From Alteromonadaceae bacterium Bs31 (GTDB lineage: Bacteria; Pseudomonadota; Gammaproteobacteria; Pseudomonadales; Cellvibrionaceae): 64,000 bases of DNA. The stretch spans positions 50,689-114,688 of the forward strand of contig FXAI01000008.1 of the NCBI GenBank assembly GCA_900177435.1, in the 5' to 3' direction. The notes beneath the pieces were generated by a model, which ran no database searches, was not told where the DNA came from, and saw only the letters and a list, made by a program, of their open reading frames with translations. The position numbers and the translations under genes are program-made. Below, piece after piece: positions 8,402 to 38,010 of this stretch (positions are counted from its first letter, which is position 1; each line of letters begins with the position of its first letter).

Positions 8402-8956
8402 ATGCTAGGTTTTATTACGCGCCCCCGCTCGCTAAGGATTTTGGCGTTCGTTGCAGGCTTAAGCTTATTGGGTGCTTGCTCATCCCCTGATATTTCCCAA
8501 TACGAAGGTACGCTGCCGCTATTAGATGTAAAGGACTATTTTGACGGTCATTTGAGTGCGCACGGGATAGTAAAAAATCGAGCAGGCAAGGTGATTCGCA
8601 CCTTTAATGCTGATATTACCGCAAGCTGGAGCGAGGAAGGGATAGGCCGCCTACATGAAACCTTTTTATTTAGTGACGGTGAAGAGCAAATCAGGGTGTG
8701 GCAGTTAGTGCCCCTCGGTGATGGCAAGTATCGAGCAAGCGCCAACGATGTCGTTGGTGAGTCTGTGTTGGTTAGTGCAGGCAATGCGCTGTTTTTGAAT
8801 TACATCCTGGAAGTACCCTACAAGGACGGCACTATGCCGCTGCGGGTTGATGATCGCATGTACCTGGTGAATGATCAGATGCTGATAAACGAATCTATTC
8901 TCAAAAAATTTGGTATACGCGTAGCCTCGGTGACCTTAGTTATTGTTAAGCATTAG
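8402..8956 (+). CDS. DUF3833-family lipoprotein.
   Basis: Lipoprotein signal ...LLGACSSP. The conserved stretch LDVKDYFDGHLSAHGIVKNRAGKVIRTFNADI is typical of this family. Confidence 0.55.
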   Translation: MLGFITRPRSLRILAFVAGLSLLGACSSPDISQYEGTLPLLDVKDYFDGHLSAHGIVKNRAGKVIRTFNADITASWSEEGIGRLHETFLFSDGEEQIRVWQLVPLGDGKYRASANDVVGESVLVSAGNALFLNYILEVPYKDGTMPLRVDDRMYLVNDQMLINESILKKFGIRVASVTLVIVKH

Positions 8957-24085: not shown

Positions 24086-24777
24086 TGTTTGCCTCCGTAT
24101 TTTTCCCAAAGCCCCTCAAAGCAGTTGATAAATTCCCGAACTGCCTTTGGGTGATGAGTGATGAGAATATTTTCCTGGTTTCGTTCACTGGCGCTCCGTG
24201 TCCAGTTAAAGCTCCCGTTAAGTAATATAGCTTTATCGAAAACAGCAAACTTGTGATGCATATGGTTAGTGCTGTTGTCCATTCTTACATCCAAGCCTTG
24301 GCGTATTAATAAGTCGATATCCGAGCCATCATCGTTTGATTTATCGTCATCTGTAATGATGCGTACGTTTATGCCGCGCTTGTGAGCACTGATGAGGGCT
24401 TCGCTGATGCGGTTGTCAGAAATCGTAAACACGCATATATCGATACTGGACTTTGCTTTATGGCAGCTATCCAATATCGCCCTGCGACATTCCTCTCCGG
24501 GGCTGAAGTAGCTTTTAGGTGGCTGTATAGCGGCACTGCCATCCAGTGCCTTAATGCTCCGTTCCAGCCACTGCAGGGCTCGATTCGCTTGTGGGCAGCC
24601 TGTTTCGAATAGGTGATGCCTGAATAAATCGAAGGCACGATTTTTTAAAAATCGTACGTCTTCTTCGTCCAGTGTGGCGGCTAAGTTGCGAAGACTTTGT
24701 TTTTCTTCACCACTCAGGCGGTAGTCTTCAAAGGTTTGTTTTAACGAGTTTTCTAGAGACTGTTTTGATGTGCTCAT
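24082..24777 (-). CDS. Phospholipase-D superfamily protein with a single HKD motif (Nuc-like endonuclease / PLD-like).
   Basis: HKD motif HHKFAVFD...GSFNWT. The N-terminal 90 aa are helical with no signal peptide. A 4-bp ATGA overlap joins it to the upstream rhomboid gene. Confidence 0.75.
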   Translation of the reverse strand: MSTSKQSLENSLKQTFEDYRLSGEEKQSLRNLAATLDEEDVRFLKNRAFDLFRHHLFETGCPQANRALQWLERSIKALDGSAAIQPPKSYFSPGEECRRAILDSCHKAKSSIDICVFTISDNRISEALISAHKRGINVRIITDDDKSNDDGSDIDLLIRQGLDVRMDNSTNHMHHKFAVFDKAILLNGSFNWTRSASERNQENILITHHPKAVREFINCFEGLWEKYGGKQ

Positions 24778-25328
24778 GTTCGCAACTTCTTTCTGGCCAT
24801 TAAGTAGGCACAGAGTACTCCGCTTAGCGCCCCGAATAAATGGGATTCAAAGGATATGCTGGCATCTCCGGGCAGGACGCCGTACACCATACCGCCGTAA
24901 AAAAAAGCCACGAAAACAGCGACGGCAATATTGCCAAAACTTCGCTGAAACCAGGCCATTGCGATAGAAAGGCTCCAAAGGCCGAATATCCAGCCACTGG
25001 CACCTATATGAATAGAAGGGCGCCCGAAAAACCAAACCAGCAGGCCTGTGAGCGTGATGATAAAAAGGCTGCTTTTGACATAGAAGCGAATACCCCGGAG
25101 TAAACACAGGGCGCTGAAGATGCACATGCCAAACAGGTTATTTAGCAAGTGGCCCCAGCTGCCGTGCAGAAACGGAGCGGTAAAAATATATGGCAGGCTG
25201 CGGGCGTCGTGAGGCGTAATGCCATAGTGTAGAAGGCGACCGCTTAATAGTATATTCAGCAGGTGGACGCCCACCATGGCAAGCACCACCCAGCTCAACA
25301 GTTTTACCTTCTCGTCAAAACCTTTCAT
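24774..25328 (-). CDS. Rhomboid family intramembrane serine protease.
   Basis: Six TM helices, GASGWIFG (the GxSG catalytic Ser) and a downstream His in the last helix (HLFGALSG). Confidence 0.75.
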   Translation of the reverse strand: MKGFDEKVKLLSWVVLAMVGVHLLNILLSGRLLHYGITPHDARSLPYIFTAPFLHGSWGHLLNNLFGMCIFSALCLLRGIRFYVKSSLFIITLTGLLVWFFGRPSIHIGASGWIFGLWSLSIAMAWFQRSFGNIAVAVFVAFFYGGMVYGVLPGDASISFESHLFGALSGVLCAYLMARKKLRT

Positions 25329-25339
25329 ATCTGCCTTAA

Positions 25340-28300
25340 CTAAAGCTGTTTGCTTCCTGCCAATTTTTCCAGCGATCGAAGCTGCTCAGATACTTCTGAC
25401 ATTTTATCGTGGGTGCGTAAATCAATTTCCAGCTTTTTGTCCATGCTCCTAACAAGGGGAAATATGCTGTTCTCGATGGTGTCTGCCAGTACTTTGAGTA
25501 ATTGATCTATTCCTGGAACCGGCTGGTTTACCACTTCTACTTTGGGCGCTTCTTTATTGGTATTCGCCAGTGCGAGTGCTTGCAGGCCGTCTGCAAACTT
25601 ACTCAAGGCTGCGCGCAGTAGCTTACGTTCTTTGTCTATGGCTTTAGCTTGTTGCTCGCTGGCCCCGTCTTTTGAGCTATTTTCCGCGCTAGCCGCTAAA
25701 TTGCGAACGCCGCTAACTAGGTCCGCCAGTTGGGCAACTACCTTGCTGCCTGTATCAGTATCATCACCACCCATGGCTTTATTGCGTAGAAAGTCGGCCT
25801 TAATTTGTTGCCAGCGTTGGCTTTGTAGCTCGGTCATATTGCCGCGCAATTCAGCAAGTTTTAGAAGGTTTTCTTCCGCACCTGCTGTGAGCAACTGAGC
25901 TTCGCCCAGGTAGTGGTCTTCAATCAGCTGCATGAGTTCACTCTGGTTCATTACGGCTGATATTTTTTCGCCCATTTTATTCATGTTGCGGTAGCTGCCT
26001 TGTAACTTAAAAGGCGGCTCGTTGCGGTATTTATCTGCCTGTGCGGCAGAAACAATGTATTGCTGATTAATTTTTAGCACCACGTCACGAATTACGTAGA
26101 GCTTTTTAAGCACGTCGACTATTTCGTTAATTTCTGCACCGCTGTATTGGTGGCTTAAATCAGTTGTGGCTACCTCTTTATCGTTAGCCAGATCCATAAG
26201 AAGGTAAACATCTTTAATGTCGCGGGTGGCTAGTGGCGCGAGTACCGGGTTGGAGGTAAGGCTGTTTTCGATATAGCTCATGGCGAACTGCTCGTCCATT
26301 CCGCCGAGGATATCACCCAGGTTATAAATGTCCGCCCTGTTGGCCAACATGTCCGGGATTTTAAATACCTCGCCAGATTCGGTATAGGGGTTACCCGCCA
26401 TGACTACGCAGAACTTTTTGCCTCGCATGTCGTAGGTTTTTGTTTTTCCTTTCCACACGCCTTCAATGCGTCGTGTGCCATCACACAGGGAAATAAACTT
26501 TTGCAGAAACTCGGGGTTGGTATGCTGTATATCATCCAGGTAGAGCATGACGTTATTGCCCATTTCCAGAGATAAATTGAGTTTATGCAGTTCCTGTCGT
26601 GCGGTGGCATTGGGTGCTTGTTCCGGGTCGAGAGATAATACCTCGTGGCCGAGAGAAGGGCAGTTGATCTTCATGAAGATCAAGCCCAAGCGGCTGGCGA
26701 CGTATTCCATCAAGGTGGTTTTACCGTAGCCGGGAGGTGAGATCATCATCAACAGGCCCATGAGGTCCGTTCGCTTATTTTCACCAACGGTTCCCATCTG
26801 CTTGGCGAGGTTGTCCCCAATAATGGGAAGATAGGCTTCGTTGATAAGCCTGTTGCGAACAAAGGAGCTTAAGGGGCGTGCTTTAAATTCTTCAAGCCGT
26901 AAGCTATCTCTTTCGCGATTGACGATGTTTTGTCGAGTTTCCAGATACTCGCGATAGCCGGTAACAAATTCGCTGCGGTGGTGGTTGAGCCTGAGGAAGA
27001 AATCGTCCACGGCGATAGAGAGAACGCGGTTCTCCACCCGCTTATGCTCGCCCATGAGGCCTTCGACACTTAACTCCAGATCGGCCTCTGTCAGCCTTCT
27101 ATCGATGCGCTCATCGGCGTTAATAAGTGCAGCCGCTTCGGGAATGTAGCGTTCGAGATGTTGCAGTTCTTTATCTTTCACCAGCGCGGAAAGCCAGGCG
27201 CAGCTGAGCTTCCAGCGTTCCGCTGGCCAGCCCAGCATTTTTTCCAGGGCCACTTGAAAGCGCCGCCAGCTATCGTCGTCCAGGCTGCGTTTTAGTTCAT
27301 CTGCCAGTTGCCTTGCGTATTTGCTGCCGATAAATTCGGTGCGCTCACGGCCCAACTCCGTAACCAGGTATTCCGCTGCTCGCCGTATTACCAGTGGGCT
27401 TACATTTATGGGGTGAATGCTTATAAACTCTCGCATAGCAGTGTGGACTTCTTCTGCCAGTAGCTCGTGTGCTTCGCCGCTGGTGAAGTGATCGCGCATT
27501 TTTGCTGCAGAAAGGGCACGCTCGGTCCAGGTTTCATAGGTGAGGCGTTTGCTTTTTAGCTGCTCGGATATACGTTGAATATTTGCCCAGAACACCTGCG
27601 CCAGCCCCCGGCTTTTGGGGTCGAAAATCAACAAGTCCGCGGCATCCATTGCGGGTAACAAGCGCTGCAGTATTTTTGCCGCGTCGTGGTCGTGAATGCC
27701 TTTTTCGTAACCCTCTTTGTAGCGAGGGGTGGCGAACTCTCTTACCAGTTTAAGCAGGCTGTTTTCATCCAATAGAGCTTGCGCGAGTACTTGCTGGTTT
27801 AAATTGTCTTCCTGTCGTTCGGCAGCATGAATAATACTGGCGGCGAGATATTCTGCCCGGTAAACGGAATCGCTTTCGGACTCCAGAGTTACCTGCCAAT
27901 AGGGTTGCAGTTCTTTTAGCGCGGGGTCTTCAATGGGTTCAAAGAAATCCGTTCCGGTAAGATGAATGTTCAGGTCGTCACCGCGAGGTAAGATGGTGAG
28001 ATCAAGCTCTTGGGTATTAACGCTGAATTTATGGCGTGGGCCCAGTTTAATAACCGAGCCGCCCCCTTCGTAAATATCTGTTTTATCACGCAGTACACGC
28101 AGCGCCTGTTCTTTTGCTGCTTTAAATTTTGATTCAATATCGTCCGCTTTTACGGCGGAACTGAGTTCACGCAGTTGCTGGATAAATTCACGTATTTTTA
28201 ATACCAGCGCATCGGACGCGAAATAGGTGTTGAGCTTGTCCGCTTCGGTAAACTTGGTGGAGCGTTTTTCTATACTGCTGAGTACTCGATTGGCGGCATC

Positions 28301-30658
28301 GGCAATTGACTGCGCGCGACGTTCCCGATCATCAAGTAAACGTTGCTTATGGGATTCAAAAGTTTCGTAGATCTCCTCCCGCTTGGACATAATATCCGTA
28401 AGAAATTGATCGTACTCACTAAACTGGCTTTCGAGTTCTTCCAGTTGAACTAATAGTCTCGACATCTGCTCGTCGCAGCTCTCTGGCGAATTTGCCATAC
28501 CCAGGGCATTGGTGATGCTTTGGGTAAAGAGCTTAAACTGCGCTGCGAATTCAGCGATAGCTTCCGATGAACCAAGGTTTTTTTGTTTGTGCCGTGCGTC
28601 GGCTTTGCATTGGTTGAGTTTTGCGTACACTTCGGAGATAGCATCTATAATCCGAGTGCGCATTGTGGTGTCTTCAACTTTTAGGGTTGATAGCAGTTCC
28701 GACAGTAAATCCAAACCAGCAGCGGTTTTTTCCACCGTTTCAATAAGCGGGTTAAGCTCTGCAATGGTTGCTACGGTTTCGACGTCTGCATTTATGGTTT
28801 CAATTTTTAGATAGTAAGGCTGTAGCGCGTTCTCATCGGCCAAAAATTCTACCGTTCGTTCACTAAGCTGTTGCTGAGCCTGAGCCAGTTGCTCTTCCAT
28901 TTTACTGATGGCAGCGGTATTAATGTAACGGTAGGATTTTATGGTGGCGAGCTGGCCAGCGTGCTGGCGCAACTCGTCCAATGCCTGCACATAGGCTTCG
29001 GCACTGTCCCAGGATGACGAGCGAATGGTTTCTATCAGTTTTTTGTGTTTTGCTTTTGCGTCGTTTAAGGCTTGGCTGCTTTGTTTGCGTATACTTTCTA
29101 CTTTGGCAAACTCATCGATTGCCAGCTCCGCAGTGGCAGAAACCTCCCGCAGCGTTATTGCGATGGTTTCCAGTCCATCGACCCCTGATTTAGATTCCGC
29201 CACCCAATAGTGATTATCGAAAACTTTTAATGCGGCGTTGGATAGCTCTTCGTAAAGCCGAACGGATACCGATTGATTATCGATAGTGCGGCAAACACTG
29301 AGTAAGTCTGAAATACCGCGTACCAGTGGTGCATTACCAATGCGGCCAAGAAAAGATTGGCTTGCTGGTGCTTTGCTGGCGAATTCGTCACTGATGTAAG
29401 GCGTGTGCCAGATTTGCATGGGGTGAACGCGTGTGGGTTCTTCCTCGGCGGAAAAAATTACCAGCTGGCCTGCGTCTGATAGCGCATAGCCGTGTGCAAA
29501 AATGGGGTTGGCCAGCTTTTTATCAATCATGTTGTAGGCCATCAGGCCCACGATGCCCTCGGCAGGCTCGTAGAAAACATAAAGCACATCTTCACCGTTG
29601 GGTGAGCGAATCATGCGTTTAAAGCGCAAGCCTTCGTGCTCTTCATCGAAAGTTTTGTTTTCTCCGCTTTGCAGGTAATAACCGCCGGGGAAAACAATGC
29701 CATGGTCTTCAGGCAGTTGAACGCAGGAAGCGCCTATGGCGTCTATCCTGTTCACTTCTGCGGTGAGAGTATTAAAAACGAAATAGCGCCATACATCTTC
29801 CCTGTAGGGCAGTATTTTAATAAGAATTAAATCGCCAAGGGCGGCGTAGCAGTATTCAGCATCGTCGATGGATTGCGTTTTATCTTCAACATCTTCGCGA
29901 TAGACTCCCAGGCCATCTTCAGTATTGTTTTCGATTTTAATGGTAAGGTCGCCACCCACGGCTTCTACAAATACCTTGTCTAAAATATTTACATGGGGGT
30001 GCCTGCCGTGAACGGCATCTTCTCGGGTACACTCTGTCCATTCAAAATCATAGGCGGGTGGCAGCTGAATATCTCGTTCACCACGGTTGTCTATATAGTC
30101 TACTTTCTTTCCGTCGGGGGAGACTGCCCAGCGAAAGACTCGGATATCTTCTAGCCGCTCACCAATCTGGAAGCCCATTAACAATTTGCCATTTTTAATG
30201 GTTAGCTCAACCAGCTTGGTATGCTTGTAGTAGCGATAGAGTTCAGTGAAATCCTGAACGAAGCTTCGATTGGCGAGAAAAGAGCTTTCGGTGGCTTGTT
30301 CTTCCAGCTGAAGGTTTTCGTCTTCGCCTTTCAATTTAAACAGGGCGAAAACATCATCCACCAGAGTCTCTTTTTTCAGGCCGATAAAAACGTTGTAGCC
30401 AAAGAGCAGGGTATCACCGACTTGAACGATATCCCGAGCAATACAGTTGTTTTCCGTACGCACGCGAACTCGTGCTGCCACAGCCATTTCTGAGCTGCCG
30501 AATTCACTGAGACGCGCGGCATTTAAATTTCGGGCATGCTGTTCGAGAGTTTCGCCCTGCTCCAGCAAGCGCTTTTTCAATACCTCGTAGGCACCGCCTT
30601 CTGAAACGGCCTTGTCTACCAGGTTTTCTTCATTTTCCTGTTGACGATCTGTCGCCAT
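25340..30658 (-). CDS. Giant 1772-aa protein with an N-terminal globular region, a central region of about 600 aa of coiled-coil, and a C-terminal AAA+ ATPase (MoxR/AAA_5-like) domain followed by a further coiled-coil tail.
   Basis: Walker A SPPGYGKTTL, Walker B VMLYLDDIQ, sensor-1-like VVMAGNPY, and an Arg-finger-like MLANRADIYNLGDI. Long heptad-like stretches (e.g. EEQLAQAQQQLSERTVEFL...). RBS AAGGAAG 4 nt upstream of the ATG at 30658. Confidence 0.7.
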   Translation of the reverse strand: MATDRQQENEENLVDKAVSEGGAYEVLKKRLLEQGETLEQHARNLNAARLSEFGSSEMAVAARVRVRTENNCIARDIVQVGDTLLFGYNVFIGLKKETLVDDVFALFKLKGEDENLQLEEQATESSFLANRSFVQDFTELYRYYKHTKLVELTIKNGKLLMGFQIGERLEDIRVFRWAVSPDGKKVDYIDNRGERDIQLPPAYDFEWTECTREDAVHGRHPHVNILDKVFVEAVGGDLTIKIENNTEDGLGVYREDVEDKTQSIDDAEYCYAALGDLILIKILPYREDVWRYFVFNTLTAEVNRIDAIGASCVQLPEDHGIVFPGGYYLQSGENKTFDEEHEGLRFKRMIRSPNGEDVLYVFYEPAEGIVGLMAYNMIDKKLANPIFAHGYALSDAGQLVIFSAEEEPTRVHPMQIWHTPYISDEFASKAPASQSFLGRIGNAPLVRGISDLLSVCRTIDNQSVSVRLYEELSNAALKVFDNHYWVAESKSGVDGLETIAITLREVSATAELAIDEFAKVESIRKQSSQALNDAKAKHKKLIETIRSSSWDSAEAYVQALDELRQHAGQLATIKSYRYINTAAISKMEEQLAQAQQQLSERTVEFLADENALQPYYLKIETINADVETVATIAELNPLIETVEKTAAGLDLLSELLSTLKVEDTTMRTRIIDAISEVYAKLNQCKADARHKQKNLGSSEAIAEFAAQFKLFTQSITNALGMANSPESCDEQMSRLLVQLEELESQFSEYDQFLTDIMSKREEIYETFESHKQRLLDDRERRAQSIADAANRVLSSIEKRSTKFTEADKLNTYFASDALVLKIREFIQQLRELSSAVKADDIESKFKAAKEQALRVLRDKTDIYEGGGSVIKLGPRHKFSVNTQELDLTILPRGDDLNIHLTGTDFFEPIEDPALKELQPYWQVTLESESDSVYRAEYLAASIIHAAERQEDNLNQQVLAQALLDENSLLKLVREFATPRYKEGYEKGIHDHDAAKILQRLLPAMDAADLLIFDPKSRGLAQVFWANIQRISEQLKSKRLTYETWTERALSAAKMRDHFTSGEAHELLAEEVHTAMREFISIHPINVSPLVIRRAAEYLVTELGRERTEFIGSKYARQLADELKRSLDDDSWRRFQVALEKMLGWPAERWKLSCAWLSALVKDKELQHLERYIPEAAALINADERIDRRLTEADLELSVEGLMGEHKRVENRVLSIAVDDFFLRLNHHRSEFVTGYREYLETRQNIVNRERDSLRLEEFKARPLSSFVRNRLINEAYLPIIGDNLAKQMGTVGENKRTDLMGLLMMISPPGYGKTTLMEYVASRLGLIFMKINCPSLGHEVLSLDPEQAPNATARQELHKLNLSLEMGNNVMLYLDDIQHTNPEFLQKFISLCDGTRRIEGVWKGKTKTYDMRGKKFCVVMAGNPYTESGEVFKIPDMLANRADIYNLGDILGGMDEQFAMSYIENSLTSNPVLAPLATRDIKDVYLLMDLANDKEVATTDLSHQYSGAEINEIVDVLKKLYVIRDVVLKINQQYIVSAAQADKYRNEPPFKLQGSYRNMNKMGEKISAVMNQSELMQLIEDHYLGEAQLLTAGAEENLLKLAELRGNMTELQSQRWQQIKADFLRNKAMGGDDTDTGSKVVAQLADLVSGVRNLAASAENSSKDGASEQQAKAIDKERKLLRAALSKFADGLQALALANTNKEAPKVEVVNQPVPGIDQLLKVLADTIENSIFPLVRSMDKKLEIDLRTHDKMSEVSEQLRSLEKLAGSKQL

Positions 30659-30667
30659 GATTCTTCC

Positions 30668-30889
30668 TTAGCAGTCTGAATGCTCTGCCAGCTCTACATC
30701 AGTTTGTTCGTTGCTTTCCACGGTAAAAAGAGCGCTTGCCAAAAGGCCAGCCAGTAAGCCCGCTCCGGCACCCATTGCGGTACTGCTCAGCACGGAATTA
30801 TTCTTAGTACCGTGTATTGCGCCAAGCCCGGCTCCTATTGCGCTGGCCAGTGGTGTTATCTTTTTTAAAGAAATATCGTTGTCGTCCAT
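30668..30889 (-). CDS. Small glycine-zipper membrane protein (GxxxG/AxxxG repeats), 73 aa.
   Basis: AIGAGLGAIHG and AMGAGAGLLAGLLASA segments. RBS AAGGAAG before the ATG. It ends 10 nt before the giant ATPase gene. Confidence 0.5.
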   Translation of the reverse strand: MDDNDISLKKITPLASAIGAGLGAIHGTKNNSVLSSTAMGAGAGLLAGLLASALFTVESNEQTDVELAEHSDC

Positions 30890-30962
30890 CGTGCTTCCTT
30901 CTGGCTACTCGCCCTCGGTGTTTGTGGCGAGTTAAGAGGTTTTGGATAGCTGTGTCGGTAAC

Positions 30963-30997
30963 AATCAAAAAGCGGTGAAACCAAGGGCTTCACCGCA
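30963..30997 (-). terminator. Rho-independent terminator after the flotillin gene (read on the minus strand).
   Basis: Minus-strand sense GCGGTGAA-gcccttggt-TTCACCGC followed by TTTTTG. It separates the yqiJK-like transcript from the downstream five-gene unit. Confidence 0.55.
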
Positions 30998-31004
30998 AAG
31001 GACA

Positions 31005-32996
31005 TTACTCGGGTTTTACATCTGTTGTGGTGCTGGCCGCCTGGGCGCCTGCAGAGTAGGCCATCACTTTCTCCAAGAGGGTAGAGATGGTTGCGCTCTT
31101 GCCTGCTAGACCGTCTACCGCTTTGCCAATGGACAGAGATTTGGCAAAGTTATCAAAGAAGTGCGCTTCGCCGCCCACGATATCAATATGTGCTTTCTGC
31201 AGCGCGGTTGCCAGAACCTCGGCATTTTCTTTGGCGATTTCTTTGCCGGCTTCAATGGCTGCGATGGCTTCGTTAAAGGCGGTTTCCAGAGTCATGCGGA
31301 ATTCTTCGTGGTCACGAGCCTTATCGCTCATATTGCCCATGGCTTCGAATTTGTCTACAAGACCGTCTGCTTCGGCTTTGAATTGCTCGCGAGTAACCTC
31401 AGCTTTTGCTACGCCGGTTTCGCGTACGGCTTTGGCTTCGGCCTCACCTTTAAAGCCAATAACATTAGCCTCTGCAGTACCTTCTTTCTCCAGGGCCACA
31501 GCTTTTGCTTCTTGCGCTTTCGCTTCTGCTTCACCTTTGGAGGCAATTACACGAGCTTCTGCAACACCTTCCTTCTCCAGTGCGTCGGCTTTGGCTTCCT
31601 GAACCTTGGCCTCAGCAAGGCCGGAGGCGGCTTCTTCTGCCTGAACGCCTTCAGCCATTTTCTTCTTGGCGTCGGCCTCTTTAGCGGCGGCTTCAAGCTC
31701 TGCTTGTGCGAGAACTGTTATTTCCACCGATTTGTGTTTGGCAGCGAGCTCTTTTGCTTCCGCCTCTTTTACAGTTTGAACTTTTTCTTCTTCGGCTTTG
31801 GCTTCTGCTTCCAGAATTTTTACTTGCTTAATACGGTCTGCCTCGGAAACTTCACGAACTTCTTTGATTTTCTCTTCTTCAATGGCAACGGTTTTATCCA
31901 CCACTACACGTTCGCGGATAACGTTGGCAATTTCCTTTTTCTCCACTTCGATGGCTTTTTCTGCTTCAATACGCTGTAGCTCCACCTCTCTTTCGCGGGA
32001 GACGATTTCCAGGTCTTTCGCCCGGGTAACCTTTTCCACCTCAATGACTACTGCACGTTGACGGTTTTGCTCCGCAACCTCAATTTCACGCTGCTGATTT
32101 TCCTCTTGAACTTTTAGGTCCTGATCCACAAGTAAGGTCGCCATATCGGCTTTCTTGCGTTCTTCTTCCTGAATGCGTTTTGTTTCAGCTTCTTCTCGCG
32201 CTTGAATACTCAGGATCTCCCGCTGCTGACGAGCCTCGGCATCGGACTGCTGGCGCTCCAGCTCCAACATGGCTTCAACGGTTTCCACATTTTTCTTTTT
32301 AATGGCCAGCTCTTCGTCGCGCTCGAACACGTTGGTTTGAACGTTTTGTGTGGCAGTAAGCTCGGTGATTTTGCGAATACCTTCGGCGTCGAGGATGTTG
32401 GCTGGGTCGAGAGAGGATTTAGGTGTTTGTTCCAGGTAGTCGATGGCCACGTCTTCCAACGCGTAGCCATTAAGATCATTTCCGATGACCTCAACAATTT
32501 TATCGCGGAACTCTTGCCTGTCTTCAAAAAGCTTAACGAAGTCCAATTGCTTGCCAACTGTTTTTAAGGCTTCTGAAAATTTTGCGTTAAACAATTCATT
32601 GACTGCGTGTTTATCGGACGCTCGATCGGCGCCAAGTGACTTGGCAACCTTTAAGACGTCTTCCGGTGTTTCATTAACGCGCAGATAAAAGGCGACGGTA
32701 ATATCTGCTCGCATATTATCGGCACATATCAGCCCCTCTTTCCCTCGTCGGTCCACTTCAAGGGTGATTAATGATATGCGCATTAATTCCTTTTTGTGTA
32801 TAACCGGCAATATCCATGAGCCAGTAAAAAATACTTTGGGTTTAGTGCTTAGGTCATTTTTAATTAAAGCAACGCCTTGTTCTACCTTTACATAGAAAGC
32901 TTTAAATAGCGCCATTATGCCGAGGATGAATAGGAATAGTACGCCAACGACAATAACTATCATCGTAAATAAAGGCAGATGATCTGGCATAGGCAT
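31005..32996 (-). CDS. yqiK: Flotillin-family protein (SPFH/band-7 domain plus a long Glu/Ala/Lys-rich coiled coil), YqiK-like.
   Basis: N-terminal TM segment, SPFH core (GVALIKND...ITLEVDRRGKEGLICADNMRADITVAFYLRV) and a flotillin-type EA-repeat region with internal ~25-aa tandem repeats. Confidence 0.85.
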   Translation of the reverse strand: MPMPDHLPLFTMIVIVVGVLFLFILGIMALFKAFYVKVEQGVALIKNDLSTKPKVFFTGSWILPVIHKKELMRISLITLEVDRRGKEGLICADNMRADITVAFYLRVNETPEDVLKVAKSLGADRASDKHAVNELFNAKFSEALKTVGKQLDFVKLFEDRQEFRDKIVEVIGNDLNGYALEDVAIDYLEQTPKSSLDPANILDAEGIRKITELTATQNVQTNVFERDEELAIKKKNVETVEAMLELERQQSDAEARQQREILSIQAREEAETKRIQEEERKKADMATLLVDQDLKVQEENQQREIEVAEQNRQRAVVIEVEKVTRAKDLEIVSREREVELQRIEAEKAIEVEKKEIANVIRERVVVDKTVAIEEEKIKEVREVSEADRIKQVKILEAEAKAEEEKVQTVKEAEAKELAAKHKSVEITVLAQAELEAAAKEADAKKKMAEGVQAEEAASGLAEAKVQEAKADALEKEGVAEARVIASKGEAEAKAQEAKAVALEKEGTAEANVIGFKGEAEAKAVRETGVAKAEVTREQFKAEADGLVDKFEAMGNMSDKARDHEEFRMTLETAFNEAIAAIEAGKEIAKENAEVLATALQKAHIDIVGGEAHFFDNFAKSLSIGKAVDGLAGKSATISTLLEKVMAYSAGAQAASTTTDVKPE

Positions 32997-33029
32997 GGTG
33001 AATCTCCTTGTTGATTAATTTAGATTGTG

Positions 33030-33713
33030 TTATTCGCCTTTAAAGTCGCTTTCAGAAACAACTTTATAAAGATTTTCTTCGGCGATGTATTCGAGCAGTA
33101 CAACTCTATCGCCTCGTTTAAATTGTTCTTCTTTGTAAGGCCTGACTTTTACAAGAAGGCCTGCTCCGCCGTCTTCGACGGTGGCTTCGCCAAACTTTTT
33201 GTCAACTCGTCCGGTTCGAACTATGGCTACCTGGCCAACTATGGTTTTCTCCACTTCTTGATTGGCGGCTTGGAAAATGGGGCGTAGTGGTCTGATTACT
33301 GTGGCAGTTATCATCGCTGATACGTAGGCTGTGCCGATAAATACAGGAATAGCTACTAAGAATTTGAGCAGTGCACCAGGTACAAAGGGAAACAGGAAAT
33401 AGACGATTAGAAAGCTGATTACCCAGCCAAGCAGTGCGATTAGAGTAAGTACTATGGTGAGCGGCACCGCGTTGAGACCAAGCTTGAGTAGAAGCCCGGA
33501 CATCACGTTAAGATTACTCATATCATCAAAATTATTGATATCAATATCTTCCGGAATGTCGAAGTCAAGAATGTCGATTTCAACCATACCTAGTACCGCC
33601 AGTGCCCAGTACAGTATGCAGAAAATTAGAAGAACCGTGAAAACAACAGTAGGAAAAGAGGAGCAAATCTCATAGAACGGGTCCATCTTTTCACTGAAAA
33701 ATATTGCAAACAT
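33030..33713 (-). CDS. yqiJ: NfeD-like inner membrane protein (YqiJ-like partner of flotillin) with a C-terminal OB-fold region.
   Basis: Multiple TM helices, then VGQVAIVRTGRVDKKFGEATVEDGGAGLLVKVR. It sits immediately upstream of the flotillin gene, as in yqiJK. Confidence 0.7.
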   Translation of the reverse strand: MFAIFFSEKMDPFYEICSSFPTVVFTVLLIFCILYWALAVLGMVEIDILDFDIPEDIDINNFDDMSNLNVMSGLLLKLGLNAVPLTIVLTLIALLGWVISFLIVYFLFPFVPGALLKFLVAIPVFIGTAYVSAMITATVIRPLRPIFQAANQEVEKTIVGQVAIVRTGRVDKKFGEATVEDGGAGLLVKVRPYKEEQFKRGDRVVLLEYIAEENLYKVVSESDFKGE

Positions 33714-33730
33714 TGGTTCCTCCTATACGG

Positions 33731-34084
33731 TTATTGTTCTTTTATATCGTTCACAGGCGGCGTAGACAGGGCATCCACTATGAGCGCAGTGGCTATCACC
33801 GCGAATATAATACTGCCGGGATAAATGCGTTCAAAGGCGATAGCTGCGGAAGTAAACCAGAGTAAACAGCTAATTGGAATGATGGCGCTCAATATAATGA
33901 TGTCTTCACCCCAAATTTCTGCCAAGCTGCCGCTTATATAGAACACCAAGCCGAGTAAAATTAGCCAGGGTTCGGCGAATAGTGCGCCGAGTACCAGTGC
34001 CGCGATAAGTCCAAGAGAGCGATGCTCAATATATTTCGCTCCATAACCGTCCAATGGGGGGAGTTTAAATCCATAGTGTTTCAT
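33731..34084 (-). CDS. Small integral membrane protein, possibly YjfL/DUF350-like.
   Basis: 117 aa with four hydrophobic helices, positioned after a YjfJ-like PspA gene. The family assignment is by context only. Confidence 0.4.
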   Translation of the reverse strand: MKHYGFKLPPLDGYGAKYIEHRSLGLIAALVLGALFAEPWLILLGLVFYISGSLAEIWGEDIIILSAIIPISCLLWFTSAAIAFERIYPGSIIFAVIATALIVDALSTPPVNDIKEQ

Positions 34085-34197
34085 TCTGCTTCTCCTTTTG
34101 CTTTCTCCTGGAAATTTTTAAATGTGCCATCCGTGGCGTGTTACAGGCCTCCTGCCGTAAATCCCTTTGTTACTTCTCCTTTTCGCCTCCGTGCGAC

Positions 34198-34890
34198 CTA
34201 ATTGCTACTTTTTTTCTTTAATCGTTCCAGTACGTCTGCTGCGCCAGTAGCGGAGGGCGATATACCCGCTTTTTCAAGCTTTTCTTGCAGAGAGTCTTGC
34301 TGGCTTTCCTCTGCAAGTTCGTTGGCTGCTTTCATTTGCGCTGCTTTCAGTGCCTGTTTTTCCTTTATGCGCTCCAGTGAATCCATGGCGGTGCGCAGTT
34401 TGGAATTGGAGCCGCTGTGCCGTTCTGCTACAGCAGATTGAGCGCGCTGTACGCTTTCTGTGGCTTTAACGGTATCTATTTGCTGCTTTAATCGTTTGAT
34501 GTTTTGCTCTGCTGCTTTTATCGCGCGCCTTAAATCGTCGGCACTGCTGGCAAAACCCGTTGCAGCTTCTCCCTCTGTGCGATACTGGTTTTCGAGCGTC
34601 GCTATTTTTTCCGCCACTTCCAGAGCGAGCGCTTGATCATCCTTCTCCAGGGCCTGTACGGCATAGCCTTCATATTCTGTGATGTTCGTTTTTAATTGCG
34701 CGCATTTTTCTTCGGCGAGCTTTTGTCTGGCAATGATGGCCGTTAACCCGTCTCTGGATTGTCTCAGCTCTTCCGTAGCGTCTCGCACTTCCTGATCCAG
34801 TATGCGCAAGGCTTGGCTGTCTAGCACGGCTTCACCCGCTTCGTGGACACCGCCTCGTAAAGCGGTAATCATTTTCGCCCAGATATTCAT
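34198..34890 (-). CDS. PspA/IM30 (Vipp1/ESCRT-III-like) family protein, YjfJ-like.
   Basis: 230-aa all-helical protein. MNIWAKMITALRGG...LRILDQEVRDATEELRQ... matches the YjfJ/PspA N-terminal pattern and length. Confidence 0.8.
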   Translation of the reverse strand: MNIWAKMITALRGGVHEAGEAVLDSQALRILDQEVRDATEELRQSRDGLTAIIARQKLAEEKCAQLKTNITEYEGYAVQALEKDDQALALEVAEKIATLENQYRTEGEAATGFASSADDLRRAIKAAEQNIKRLKQQIDTVKATESVQRAQSAVAERHSGSNSKLRTAMDSLERIKEKQALKAAQMKAANELAEESQQDSLQEKLEKAGISPSATGAADVLERLKKKSSN

Positions 34891-34901
34891 TACATTCTCC
34901 T

Positions 34902-35540
34902 CTATGCCCTGGCATCCAGGGGGGTGGTTAATAAGTTGCTGTACGCTTCCGTTGCGTGGATAACGTTTGCAGCCAAGGTTTCGATTTCGAACAAGATGTT
35001 GGGTATTACAGAGGTGGCGCTCAGTGCACCGAACATCATGTAATAGCTCTTGCCGTCGCTTAGGGTGTCGAGGCTGATGGTGGAGAGCGGGAAGTACTTG
35101 TGAGTACGTAATACCGCGTCATTAAATTTGTTGGGGTCTTCCACATCCCCTGTTGGCCAGAGCACTGCTTCTACTACGATTTGCTCCCCGGCAGCTGTGA
35201 GGAAGAGTGGCAAATCGCCATACTCGCGCATGATGATGTGCAGTGTTGGCTCAACGCCATCAATCAGCTCAATATCGGCGTTGCCACTGGTGAACAGCTC
35301 TTCTTTTTTTAGCTCTTCACAAAGGCTTTCGCTTGACCAGCGCGGCAGGTTGATAGTTGTCATAGGCTTGTCTCCTGTATCCATGATCGGTTTTGGATTG
35401 ATATACCTTAGCTGCTTTTCTATGTTCGCAAGCAACTTGGCGTTCTCCGGGAGTATCCAGACTTCCTTTTTTACCAGGCCCATATCCCGCAGGCGCTGGC
35501 GATACTCTCGTTGGTAATGTGCAGATGACTTTGCTTTCAT
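34902..35540 (-). CDS. Conserved hypothetical protein that is first in the cluster (YjfI-like by position). Its N-terminus is basic and looks like a DNA-binding segment.
   Basis: MKAKSSAHYQREYRQRLRDMGLVKK resembles short basic DNA-binding leaders of small regulators. It is followed by an acidic domain of about 170 aa. The family is uncertain. Confidence 0.4.
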   Translation of the reverse strand: MKAKSSAHYQREYRQRLRDMGLVKKEVWILPENAKLLANIEKQLRYINPKPIMDTGDKPMTTINLPRWSSESLCEELKKEELFTSGNADIELIDGVEPTLHIIMREYGDLPLFLTAAGEQIVVEAVLWPTGDVEDPNKFNDAVLRTHKYFPLSTISLDTLSDGKSYYMMFGALSATSVIPNILFEIETLAANVIHATEAYSNLLTTPLDARA

Positions 35541-35558
35541 GGGTCCTACTCTATTTCA

Positions 35559-35613
35559 TTACATGTGAGATGTAAATAGCTTACATGTAATATATTTTGT
35601 TATTACATGTAAT
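35559..35613. promoter_or_regulatory. Three TTACATGTAA-type palindromic operator-like sites in the divergent promoter region.
   Basis: TTACATgtgagATGTAA at 35559-35575; TTACATGTAA at 35581-35590 and again at 35604-35613, spaced about 22 bp apart, in an AT-rich 145-bp intergenic region between divergent genes. Confidence 0.45.
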
Positions 35614-35826
35614 TTTTTTATAGCGATATTTCGCCTACTTTAAATTTCACACTATTCCACAGCGCTTGTTTGTGAATGGCCGGGGTTGCGCAATGTGCGA
35701 GGGTCACAAAGCCTGCGCTTGCTCGCGGGGGCGTTTTGTTCTGGGATGTCTGTCACTTCATTGCTTCCTTCAATGGCGCATTGTTTGGCTAAAGAAAAGG
35801 GCGTGCTCAGTGGGGTAGCACAGTAT

Positions 35827-38010
35827 ATGACCTTAAAAATAAAAGTATTAAGTCAGCTCGTTATTGTCATTTCTCTCGCCGCTTGTGGCGGTGGTTCCGG
35901 GTCCGCGCTGCCTGTAAATGATAACGGTAGTTCCACTTCGTCATCCAGCAGTTCTTCTTCCAGCTCTTCGGGGGTGAGTTTGCCTGGGCCCGAAGCCGTT
36001 AGTTCCAGTTCATCCGGCAGCTCTGCGGGCAGTGCTAGTTCATCCGGTTCCGGTTCTTCAAGTTCAGGCTCGACCAACAGTACCAGCTCATCATCTTCAA
36101 GCTCAGGCTCGTCCAACAGTACCAGCTCATCATCTTCAAGCTCAGGCTCGTCCAACAGTACCAGCTCATCATCTTCAAGCTCAAGCTCGTCCAGCAGTGC
36201 CAGTTCGTCATCTTCAAGCTCAAGTACTTCGTCTTCCGGTGGCGTAAGGGCATGCAGCGTCGGTTCTGGTGTAACCCGGTGGGCGGATAGTTGCGCTGCT
36301 CAAGCCACGAGCTGTGTGGCGGGAGAGTGGAGGGCGCCTAAGGATGGAGGCGACACAAATGCGCCGCTGCGGATGGAATCTGAACATTTTGCTATTTACT
36401 GGCCGGAGGGTACCTCAATTACCGAGGCGGATGCTGAACTTGCCGCGAATACTTTGGAGGGGATATGGGACAAGTACTTTGGGGCTCCCCTGTTTTTCCC
36501 GGAGCCATACTGCAGTTCAAGTGAAAAATGGAAGGCAGCGGTGCATTTTGATGATGATTTCCCGCTTTGGGGTGGGGGTTGGGCCCGTAACGGCATTGAT
36601 TATATGGGCATGTGGATAGGCCCGGGTGCCGCCAAGGATGCCTGGGGTTTGGCCCATGAATTTATGCATGGGGTGCAGTCTACCACGCAGGGTTTTTCGG
36701 GTTGTGGTGAGGCGGGCTGCTGGATTTATGAGAGCCACGCCAACTGGATGCCACACCAGATTTACCGAGATGATGTGCATTGCTCGGAAATGTTGGTGAA
36801 TGCACCGCACCTTTACTATGGCTCTAGCCGAAATCGCTATTGTAATTGGCAGTTTTTTGAATTTTTAAAAGACAAGCATTGCCCCTCTGCGGTTAATGAG
36901 ATGTGGTCTTACGATGCGCCTCCGAATGAGCGGGACCCCTGGCAGAAGCTAATGCTGAGCCGGGGTTGGGATATTGAAACCCTCAATGATCTTTTTGGTG
37001 AGTGGGCTATGCACAATGTTACCTGGGATTATCGAAACCCGGATGGCACTGATCAGGGAGAGGTTTATCGCCAAAAATATGGCCGCATAAATGAACCGCC
37101 CGGGCCCAGAACCGAGCGTCGCCTGAGGTTGGCGCAGGTGGAAAACCTTGATGAGCATTGGGCTGAGAACCGCCGCTTTGTTTCTCCATTTTACTGGGCT
37201 CCTCAGCGCTGGGGCTATAACCTTGTTCGGCTCTATCCAGAGCGGGGTGCCAGTAGCGTGACCGTTCGCTTTAGAGGCGTTGTTCAGCCCAGTGCGAATT
37301 CCGGGTGGCGCTGGGGCTTGGTGGCTACGAATGGCAGTCTTACGGCTCCTCAGTACAGTGAGTTGCAGGCTGGCGCCGAGGGTGAGCTCTCTTTTTGTAT
37401 TGATGGCGATGAAGAGCTGTATTTGGTTGTTCTTGCCGCCCCCACGCTGTACCAGCCGATTTCCTGGGATAGGGAGGCGGACGGTCAGGCTTATCCGTCT
37501 ATTTATCGCTACCCTTACATGATCGAGCTGCAGGGTGCCTGGCCCCAGGGTTTTGAGGGCGGGCAGCGCAGTGCCTGCCCTGCGGGCACGGTGCGGCACA
37601 GTAACGGTGGTGGTTGTGCTCCAGCAGCAACAGCAGCAACTGTATATGTGGGGCCGTACGCAAAGATTCTTGGTGGCGAGGTATCGGGTGATGCACGCAT
37701 TGAAGATCATGCCACTGTTGTTAGTGGTACGGTGAGTGGCGGTACCGTTGGTGCTCTGAGTTTAATTGGTGTGGAGAATCGGGCCAGCTTTAATGTCATC
37801 GATAAGGCCGTGGTTCAGTCTGTTTTTTATCCTCTCGGTTGGTTTGCGAATGATCTCACCGCCAGTGGCGATGCCCGACTTCTTGGGGACTTGGAGGTGC
37901 ATTCCTCCAAGTCTGCCAATACTCATTACGGGCTGGTCAGTGATGAGGGGCTTGGTGTGCCATACGCGGATGAGCTAACTGTCGAGCCACCCTATCAATG
38001 GCGCGACTAG
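35827..38010 (+). CDS. Secreted lipoprotein with a long poly-serine linker and a C-terminal HExxH zinc-metallopeptidase-like domain.
   Basis: Lipoprotein signal MTLKIKVLSQLVIVISLAACGGG, about 100 aa of Ser-rich linker, then GLAHEFMHGVQSTTQ. The ORF-track start at 35686 adds 47 non-signal residues and is less likely. Confidence 0.65.
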   Translation: MTLKIKVLSQLVIVISLAACGGGSGSALPVNDNGSSTSSSSSSSSSSSGVSLPGPEAVSSSSSGSSAGSASSSGSGSSSSGSTNSTSSSSSSSGSSNSTSSSSSSSGSSNSTSSSSSSSSSSSSASSSSSSSSTSSSGGVRACSVGSGVTRWADSCAAQATSCVAGEWRAPKDGGDTNAPLRMESEHFAIYWPEGTSITEADAELAANTLEGIWDKYFGAPLFFPEPYCSSSEKWKAAVHFDDDFPLWGGGWARNGIDYMGMWIGPGAAKDAWGLAHEFMHGVQSTTQGFSGCGEAGCWIYESHANWMPHQIYRDDVHCSEMLVNAPHLYYGSSRNRYCNWQFFEFLKDKHCPSAVNEMWSYDAPPNERDPWQKLMLSRGWDIETLNDLFGEWAMHNVTWDYRNPDGTDQGEVYRQKYGRINEPPGPRTERRLRLAQVENLDEHWAENRRFVSPFYWAPQRWGYNLVRLYPERGASSVTVRFRGVVQPSANSGWRWGLVATNGSLTAPQYSELQAGAEGELSFCIDGDEELYLVVLAAPTLYQPISWDREADGQAYPSIYRYPYMIELQGAWPQGFEGGQRSACPAGTVRHSNGGGCAPAATAATVYVGPYAKILGGEVSGDARIEDHATVVSGTVSGGTVGALSLIGVENRASFNVIDKAVVQSVFYPLGWFANDLTASGDARLLGDLEVHSSKSANTHYGLVSDEGLGVPYADELTVEPPYQWRD
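36061..36216 (+). repeat. Perfect 39-bp tandem repeat with three identical units and one degenerate unit, encoding SSGSSNSTSSSSS within the poly-Ser linker.
   Basis: agctcaggctcgtccaacagtaccagctcatcatcttca is repeated identically at 36100-36138 and 36139-36177. The first unit (36061-36099) differs at two positions and the fourth is degenerate. Confidence 0.85.

Follow-up and report, generated by a model that had tools for sequence, protein, structure and literature searches.

A stretch of 64,000 nucleotides from Alteromonadaceae bacterium Bs31 (contig FXAI01000008.1 of assembly GCA_900177435.1, positions 50,689 to 114,688 of the forward strand), here called the window and numbered from its first letter, carries a bac (biofilm-associated cluster) operon. 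Its first gene, bacA, is preceded by three palindromic repeats. We propose, with good confidence, that BacA represses its own operon through an N-terminal module that would act at operators of the consensus TYACATGTRA in the sigma70-type bacA promoter. Autorepressors with phased palindromic operators are a classic kind of system. New here are the proposed identity of the module that reads the operators, its kinship with an antitoxin family, a candidate operator for that whole family, a corrected gene model and an architecture with a probably leaderless first start and a putative internal start. That BacA physically binds to the operators is what we infer from comparative sequence analysis. This offers a concrete mechanism for the "negative control" attributed to BacA, consisting of an N-terminal DNA-binding module that had been missed, defined operators and a sigma70 promoter.

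The operators and promoter elements upstream of bacA, which is encoded on the minus strand, are as follows.

35559..35568, operator O1: TTACATGTGA on the plus strand, TCACATGTAA on the gene strand; approximately -28 to -19 from the ATG
35581..35590, operator O2: TTACATGTAA, with the 12-mer CTTACATGTAAT at 35580-35591; directly 5' of the -35 hexamer, 22 bp from O1
35603..35612, operator O3: TTACATGTAA, with the 12-mer ATTACATGTAAT at 35602-35613; 22 bp from O2
35571..35576, minus strand, -35 hexamer TTTACA: from a promoter scan; TTGACA or a close variant at the orthologous position in most loci
35548..35553, minus strand, -10 hexamer TAGAGT: from the promoter scan; 17 bp from the -35 hexamer and 7 nt before the ATG
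35538..35540, minus strand, first bacA ATG and probable transcription start, as judged from the promoter geometry and the absent Shine-Dalgarno sequence

Two of the palindromes are exact copies of TTACATGTAA and the third, TTACATGTGA, is a copy with one mismatch. The plus strand at 35540-35620 reads ...cat gggtcctactctatttca TTACATGTGA g ATGTAAAtag c TTACATGTAA tatattttgtta TTACATGTAA ttttttt. The only further one-mismatch copy of TTACATGTAA in the window is at position 8522. With the pattern TYACATGTRA, which is degenerate at the two positions that vary among orthologs, the window contains three exact matches, all of them within 35559-35612. Only 0.19 were expected, and none of 100 shuffles reached three; the clustered sites are therefore real and not due to chance. 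An earlier note on this DNA, made from the sequence, had described three near-identical 10-bp palindromes about 22 bp apart, which is borne out; the start-to-start distance of neighbouring sites is exactly 22 bp. Its range of 35559-35613 places the array correctly, except that the last site ends at 35612 and 35613 is the flanking T of ATTACATGTAAT. The note had also seen one palindrome as split by 5 nt. This is not the case: O1 is the contiguous 10-mer TTACATGTGA with a single A to G substitution at position 9, a substitution that is tolerated in orthologous sites, and the additional ATGTAA (35570-35575) taken for the second half-site is part of the bacA -35 hexamer TTTACA.

The same footprint is found throughout the BacA family. 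From a genome scan we obtained 80 BacA-ortholog loci (L001-L080), including Cellvibrio, Hahella, Oleispira, Teredinibacter, Methylococcales and others, and counted sites with at most one mismatch within 150 bp upstream of bacA. The operator motif is present in all 80 loci, as well as in Pseudomonas aeruginosa. A single copy is present in four loci, two copies in 50, three in 25 and four in one (three or more in 26 of the 80). These 183 sites lie in approximately 12 kb of upstream DNA, whereas the remaining 636 kb or so contain ten one-mismatch sites and not a single exact one. Variation is symmetric and in 181 of the 183 sites confined to positions 2 (T/C) and 9 (A/G); the flanks favour A and T, giving aTYACATGTRAt as the consensus of the 183 sites. 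The spacing of adjacent sites peaks at 21-24 bp, a second site 21-24 bp 5' of the proximal one being the commonest layout, and in 57 of the 80 loci the proximal site begins 27-28 nt ahead of the ATG. In P. aeruginosa the promoter reads ATTACATGTGAG-ctg-TTGAAA-tc-TTACATGTGA-tctcg-TAGTGT-gagtcc-ATG, so that the whole layout is kept despite a GC-rich genome. In the literature searched, the operator sequence was not found in this context. Operator pairs proved unsuitable for defining a regulon. A metagenome scan for ACATGTRA-N10-16-TYACATGT matched at least 120 loci; two bacA promoters are among the matches listed, most of the others being unrelated or tandem repeats.

BacA itself is composed of three parts.

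34902..35540, minus strand, complete bacA coding sequence, 212 amino acids: NCBIfam NF050185, 313.9 bits against a cutoff of 300
35406..35540, minus strand, proposed DNA-binding module, codons 1-45 (MKAKSSAHYQREYRQRLRDMGLVKKEVWILPENAKLLANIEKQLR): from conservation and homology to PF11455/DUF3018 antitoxins
35340..35405, minus strand, variable linker, residues 46-67: disordered in the AlphaFold2 model, with a predicted local distance difference test score (pLDDT) below 50 for residues 54-59
34929..35339, minus strand, DUF2170 domain, residues 68-204: Pfam PF09938, E 1.7e-48 (residues 68-202)

The match to NF050185, "biofilm formation regulator BacA", covers positions 1-203 of the 206 of the profile, and close homologs of the window protein carry this name. 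The window protein matches a Bs31 protein with 100% identity; a megablast of the region against Escherichia coli genomes gave no match. Conservation in BacA is highest over the first 45 residues, with 18 of these 45 columns invariant in 78 sequences (overall identity 61-82%). AlphaFold2 predicts this module with a pLDDT of 87 (range 74-93) as a helix (residues 6-19), an extended stretch or short helix, and a second helix (31-43 or 31-47). Residues 68-204 match the crystal structure of P. aeruginosa BacA, 8q8o (E 2e-43; Foldseek template modelling score 0.94-0.97), in which DUF2170 dimerises. The DUF2170 fold resembles type III secretion chaperones and YbjN.

The N-terminal module appears to be a diverged relative of the DNA-binding end of MazE-like antitoxins of the family PF11455/DUF3018. 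A direct comparison of BacA with Pfam PF11455 gives 12.7 bits (E 0.13, residues 11-29), below the gathering threshold of 22 bits, and stand-alone relatives of the module reach 20.5-21.1 bits, which is likewise sub-threshold. When a profile of BacA N-termini was compared by hhalign to a profile built from the PF11455 antitoxins described below, the probability was 96.2% (E 2.6e-9, 31 columns). One match of the operator-pair scan, the metagenomic locus L105, has two copies of GTTACATGTAAC 22 bp apart (at about 170-215 of the reverse complement) directly 5' of a PF11455 antitoxin gene, which is followed by a PemK/MazF toxin gene. We fetched twelve diverse plasmid PF11455 antitoxin / PemK-MazF loci from Alphaproteobacteria and Actinobacteria (Agrobacterium, Microvirga, Acidibrevibacterium, Rhizobium, Mycobacterium, Rhodococcus, Azospirillum, Skermanella, Paracoccus, Pseudosulfitobacter and Gordonia). 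In ten of them (L208-L210, L212-L215, L217-L219) an exact GTTACATGTAAC is located 10-25 nt before the start codon, in GC-rich surroundings. Of the other two, one has two copies of the variant GTTGCATGCAAC and one is pseudogene-like. All eleven antitoxins aligned, from L105 and ten plasmid loci, match PF11455 strongly. BacA and the PF11455 antitoxins, found in different phyla and with different neighbouring genes, share only this module and yet have the same palindrome in their own promoters, which is strong comparative evidence that the BacA module reads TTACATGTAA. By the same comparison GTTACATGTAAC is a candidate family-wide operator of PF11455 antitoxins across phyla, a family so far uncharacterised. 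No description of GTTACATGTAAC in this role was found in the literature searched, where DUF3018/PF11455 is barely mentioned. Conservation, homology and co-occurrence thus support two suggestions of the earlier note, that the palindromes may form a multi-operator array for a dimeric regulator and that the basic N-terminal segment of the first gene may be the cognate DNA-binding module.

Type II antitoxins autorepress at palindromes within their own promoters, and this logic is presumably common to BacA and the PF11455 antitoxins. Both have an N-terminal basic helix followed by a GL..(V/I)W(I/V)(L/P)P stretch, and both have the TTACATGTAA palindrome just 5' of their own gene. However, BacA has neither a toxin partner nor an acidic C-terminal toxin-binding tail. 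Its module is joined via the linker to a chaperone-like DUF2170 domain and controls, on the present proposal, a membrane-stress operon. Moreover, bacA promoters usually have two to three operators in 22-bp phase, whereas most PF11455 antitoxin promoters have one. Given the PspA-like neighbour and the C-terminal DUF2170 domain, BacA is not an antitoxin but shares the DNA-binding module only. A toxin-antitoxin DNA-binding module would thereby have been recruited into a membrane-stress system.

The operators could also be genuine and be read by an unlinked shared transcription factor, the BacA module binding RNA or a partner protein instead. This would fit the stand-alone relatives of the module, 46-60 amino acids long and encoded inside operons of phage-like gene arrays (L085, L221-L224): TYACATGTRA is absent from the available DNA of these contigs. 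However, the palindrome also precedes the plasmid antitoxin genes of Alphaproteobacteria and Actinobacteria, whose sole common feature with the bacA loci is the homologous module, and no exact site occurs in about 636 kb of flanking DNA of the 80 genomes. The motif is also missing from DUF2170 operons without the module. Escherichia coli YjfI is a DUF2170 protein adjoining the PspA-like YjfJ; yjfI-yjfJ encodes no N-terminal module and has no operator upstream, and the same is true for the DUF2170-PspA operon of Pseudomonas sp. DG56-2. No other conserved DNA-binding protein was seen in the bacA neighbourhood. We regard an unlinked factor as unlikely.

The position of the operators relative to the promoter favours repression by BacA over activation. 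In the orthologous loci the best sigma70-type promoter includes the proximal operator within its 17-bp spacer; alignment on this proximal site reveals a conserved -35 (TTGACa) directly upstream and a -10 (TAnnnT) downstream. In the window O1 likewise sits within the 17-bp spacer, O2 abuts the -35 hexamer and O3 is another two helical turns upstream. Protein bound at these sites would exclude RNA polymerase, resulting in negative autoregulation. We suggest that each palindrome is read by a dimer of the 45-residue modules, that with a phase of 22 bp all sites face the same side of the helix and that dimerisation of the C-terminal DUF2170 domains may couple neighbouring dimers. Phasing and dimerisation together suggest cooperative occupancy. 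The DUF2170 domain, by binding the PspA-like protein BacB, would probably also receive the signal. A BacA-BacB contact has been reported from unpublished data (PMC10948618) and the interaction has been predicted with an AlphaFold probability of 0.981 (PMC13092808), which suggests that the PspA-like protein supplies the signal. Repression agrees with the accumulation of BacB-F in a P. aeruginosa bacA::Tn mutant, the only strain for which negative control of the bac operon by BacA has been reported (Wallart et al. 2024, PMC10948618).

BacA might instead be mainly an activator or a dual regulator acting via O2 (centre near -45) and O3 (centre near -67), with O1 only fine-tuning. Such centres fit class I activation, and a few loci (L031, L036 and L040 of Hahella, as well as L004 and L084) have both sites 5' of the -35 and none within the spacer. 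In most loci, however, the spacer is occupied by a site, and sites so placed are repressing. Both promoter hexamers are near consensus across loci, so that no activator seems to be needed, and the P. aeruginosa bacA mutant has more BacB-F, not less (PMC10948618). We judge activation to be quite unlikely as the main function of BacA.

It also counts against activation that antitoxins homologous in the module autorepress. Very improbable is a third explanation, in which the repeats are no protein operators at all but AT-rich promoter architecture, sites of DNA methylation or restriction such as ACATGT or CATG, or elements that control the divergent DUF6055 gene. In its favour, the region is very AT-rich (GC 0.23), and methyltransferases that recognise CATG or ACATGT are known. 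Against it, a palindrome of 10-12 bp with symmetric variation only is kept in fixed places whether the genome is rich in GC or in AT, none of 82 other loci has the DUF6055 gene beside bacA, and a scan of 35300-36000 against Rfam gave no family match and one chance-level hit only.

Besides the phage-like contigs, several further points weigh against BacA as the autorepressor. The hhalign match to the antitoxins spans the first helix and the strand-like stretch only (the 31 columns given above), and the residues of the presumed strand differ (VKKEVW compared to RPIQIW) though the operator is identical. The scan pattern for the 80 loci included the N-terminal module, hence these loci alone cannot test whether module and operator occur independently, and the negative-control operons are only two in number. 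Finally, bacA is interrupted in the P. aeruginosa mutant by MAR2xT7, which brings in a gentamicin cassette, and read-through could also raise the amounts of the downstream proteins.

Some loci deviate in the protein, the operator or both. The divergent BacA of L084 has the N-terminus KSSSYYMDQMRKKLRSQGMVTRDVWIHPDN and the operators TCACCTGTGA / TCACAGGTGA. At 1515-1548 of this locus the operators, read as ATCACCTGTGAT and ATCACAGGTGAT, have an altered central dinucleotide; they are 22 bp apart and both 5' of a TTGACA -35, followed by a leader of approximately 35 nt, a geometry differing from that of the usual bacA promoter. L086 and L087 have changed N-terminal residues and an unchanged operator. 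Among the antitoxin loci, the Mycobacterium intracellulare plasmid L216 has GTTGCATGCAAC twice, 16 bp apart, some 95-125 bp ahead of the annotated start. The annotation probably places this start too far downstream, and an in-frame ATG upstream of it gives MGTSTRRAGEYRQRMRERG... L216 is a possible case of protein-operator co-variation. For L084, L086 and L087, the co-variation of divergent N-termini and operators is suggestive but too thin for mapping recognition residues.

The mRNA from which the long form of BacA is translated is probably leaderless. The distance from the end of the -10 hexamer to the first ATG is 5-8 nt in 71 of 81 loci (L001-L080 and P. aeruginosa, L081). No Shine-Dalgarno sequence precedes this ATG across the loci (mean duplex energy -1.55, background -1.98). 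For these two reasons the bacA mRNA probably starts at the first ATG itself. This arrangement is rare among Gammaproteobacteria. A possible second promoter spotted by eye (TTTAAA-16-TATAAA at about 35646-35619, minus strand) was set aside, as it is not conserved and fails in the promoter scan. A sigma54-type -24/-12 site (GG-N10-GC) is not present upstream of the window bacA either; the best match has 7 of 11 positions and lacks both the GG and the GC core.

Lambda cI, when transcribed from PRM, and tetR of Tn1721 are leaderless autoregulated repressor genes. As in bacA, their -10 lies 6-7 nt before the start codon, there is no Shine-Dalgarno sequence, and the operators overlap the repressor gene's own promoter. 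Their DNA-binding fold is unrelated to the BacA module, and bacA differs in an additional Shine-Dalgarno-led in-frame start that would yield a form without the DNA-binding module.

35372-35375, minus strand, internal Shine-Dalgarno sequence GGAG, nine nt before the ATG
35361-35363, minus strand, internal ATG (Met60), conserved within the variable linker

The linker has a near-invariant Gly, followed by three residues and Met. This Gly is encoded by GGA in 69 of 70 loci, compared to a GGA share of 12% among all other glycine codons of these genes, and a G follows directly in all 70. Predicted pairing of the internal Shine-Dalgarno region is at or below -6 kcal/mol in 86% of loci, compared to 7% at other in-frame positions. 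The constancy of GGA/G and the strong pairing point to selection on the nucleotide sequence, which suggests a second start that would produce a BacA form consisting of DUF2170 only, without the DNA-binding module. In P. aeruginosa the internal Shine-Dalgarno region (GGAGAAGGAGGAAGACATG) is the annotated leader of PA3732. PMC4066749, citing Brencic and Lory (2009), lists this leader as a direct target of RsmA with several sites around the Shine-Dalgarno sequence.

We tentatively put forward bacA as a self-contained two-isoform switch, a possible scheme in which the long form, translated leaderless, would be the repressor and the internally started short form an anti-repressor or BacB buffer. 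The short form, starting at Met60, might act by mixed dimerisation or by competition for BacB; in P. aeruginosa it would start in the RsmA-bound region and would also be the form that was crystallised. If this is true, toxin-antitoxin autoregulatory logic has been domesticated for a PspA/flotillin membrane-stress operon across many Gammaproteobacteria. The leaderless start and the RsmA-controlled internal start in P. aeruginosa hint at an isoform-based link from Gac/Rsm signalling to a PspA-type response.

P. aeruginosa BacA (PA3732 / PA14_16140), encoded by the first gene of the bac cluster, is the ortholog of the window BacA (NF050185). Its operon has the same content as in the window, namely a PspA-like protein, a membrane protein, a flotillin-like protein and a DUF3686 ATPase, and operators and geometry of the bacA promoter are also the same. 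In P. aeruginosa, BacA and its operon influence the formation of biofilms as well as swarming, rhamnolipid production and virulence. The papers of 2008 and 2024 (the latter PMC10948618) used a PA3732 / PA14_16140 model of 16 kDa and 146 residues. Current P. aeruginosa BacA has 206 residues and begins with MQRKSSAHYQRVFRQRLREQGLVKKEVWILPEN..., and the crystallised 8q8o chain starts at an internal Met. The 146-residue model is without the conserved 59 N-terminal residues (L081, 3001-3180). Because the published model starts at this internal Met, the N-terminal module is absent from the crystallised protein and from the published analysis, and the 8q8o structure gave no answer as to how BacA exerts negative control. 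A sigma54 promoter and regulation by protein-protein contact were proposed, and no operator or DNA-binding domain was named (PMC10948618). The gene model behind both the crystal structure and the sigma54 proposal appears to be truncated, and the published sigma54 site "upstream" of the short gene would fall inside the long reading frame. This would correct the gene model of a virulence-related protein that has been studied.

The genes following bacA are listed below, all on the minus strand.

34198-34890, minus strand, bacB, PspA-like (PspA/IM30)
33731-34084, minus strand, open reading frame (ORF) of 117 amino acids, predicted membrane protein
33030-33713, minus strand, membrane protein of 227 amino acids
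31005-32996, minus strand, flotillin-like protein
25340-30658, minus strand, DUF3686/AAA ATPase of 1772 residues
24774-25328, minus strand, rhomboid

The genes from 24774 to 34890 are presumably under the control of the bacA promoter. Their order is that of the P. aeruginosa bac cluster, in which bacA-F are co-transcribed (PMC10948618). Downstream of bacA, the PspA gene is found in 82 of 82 loci, the 227-residue gene in 80 and the flotillin-like gene in 79. The 117-residue ORF, located between the PspA-like and the 227-residue genes, has no tblastn match in the 82 other bac loci and could be assigned to no family in Pfam or NCBIfam; either it was inserted in this lineage only or it is no gene. 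In the E. coli systems Psp (PspF, PspA, sigma54) and yjfIJKLMC, a PspA-family protein is also encoded beside a small regulator-like protein, and the feedback of a PspA-type protein on its own transcription via a partner protein is alike in concept. Unlike E. coli Psp, the bac operon of the window has no sigma54 promoter and no PspF-type activator.

The BacA module has further relatives. Residues 1-50 (window 35391-35540) weakly match NF041430, "plasmid repression protein F (UrfF)", with 18.7 bits (E 0.0014), far below the cutoff; by this similarity UrfF may represent a further family of small repressors that contain this module. The stand-alone relatives in phage-like arrays are often translationally coupled to an upstream gene of about 89 codons, and one lies 5' of a Phage_CRI replication gene. 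A promoter-like region of L085 contains the 14-bp palindrome ATACACGCGTGTAT at 926-939.

On the other side of the operators the divergent gene (plus strand, 35686-38010) encodes a DUF6055 lipoprotein. A DUF6055 gene adjoins bacA in 0 of 82 other loci, compared to 82 of 82 for PspA. The operators therefore belong to bacA alone, and the divergent promoter in which the earlier note had placed them is not upheld. The start of the lipoprotein gene is probably ATG 35827, which gives MTLKIKV...LAAC with a lipobox, and not TTG 35686. The intergenic region is then approximately 286 bp long, where the note had described 145 bp of AT-rich DNA; it is indeed AT-rich, though only at about 35541-35650. The lipobox is followed by a very long Ser-rich linker of low complexity. 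A GC-rich hairpin with a subsequent T-run, resembling a terminator, lies at 35712-35734, approximately 100 nt 5' of ATG 35827.

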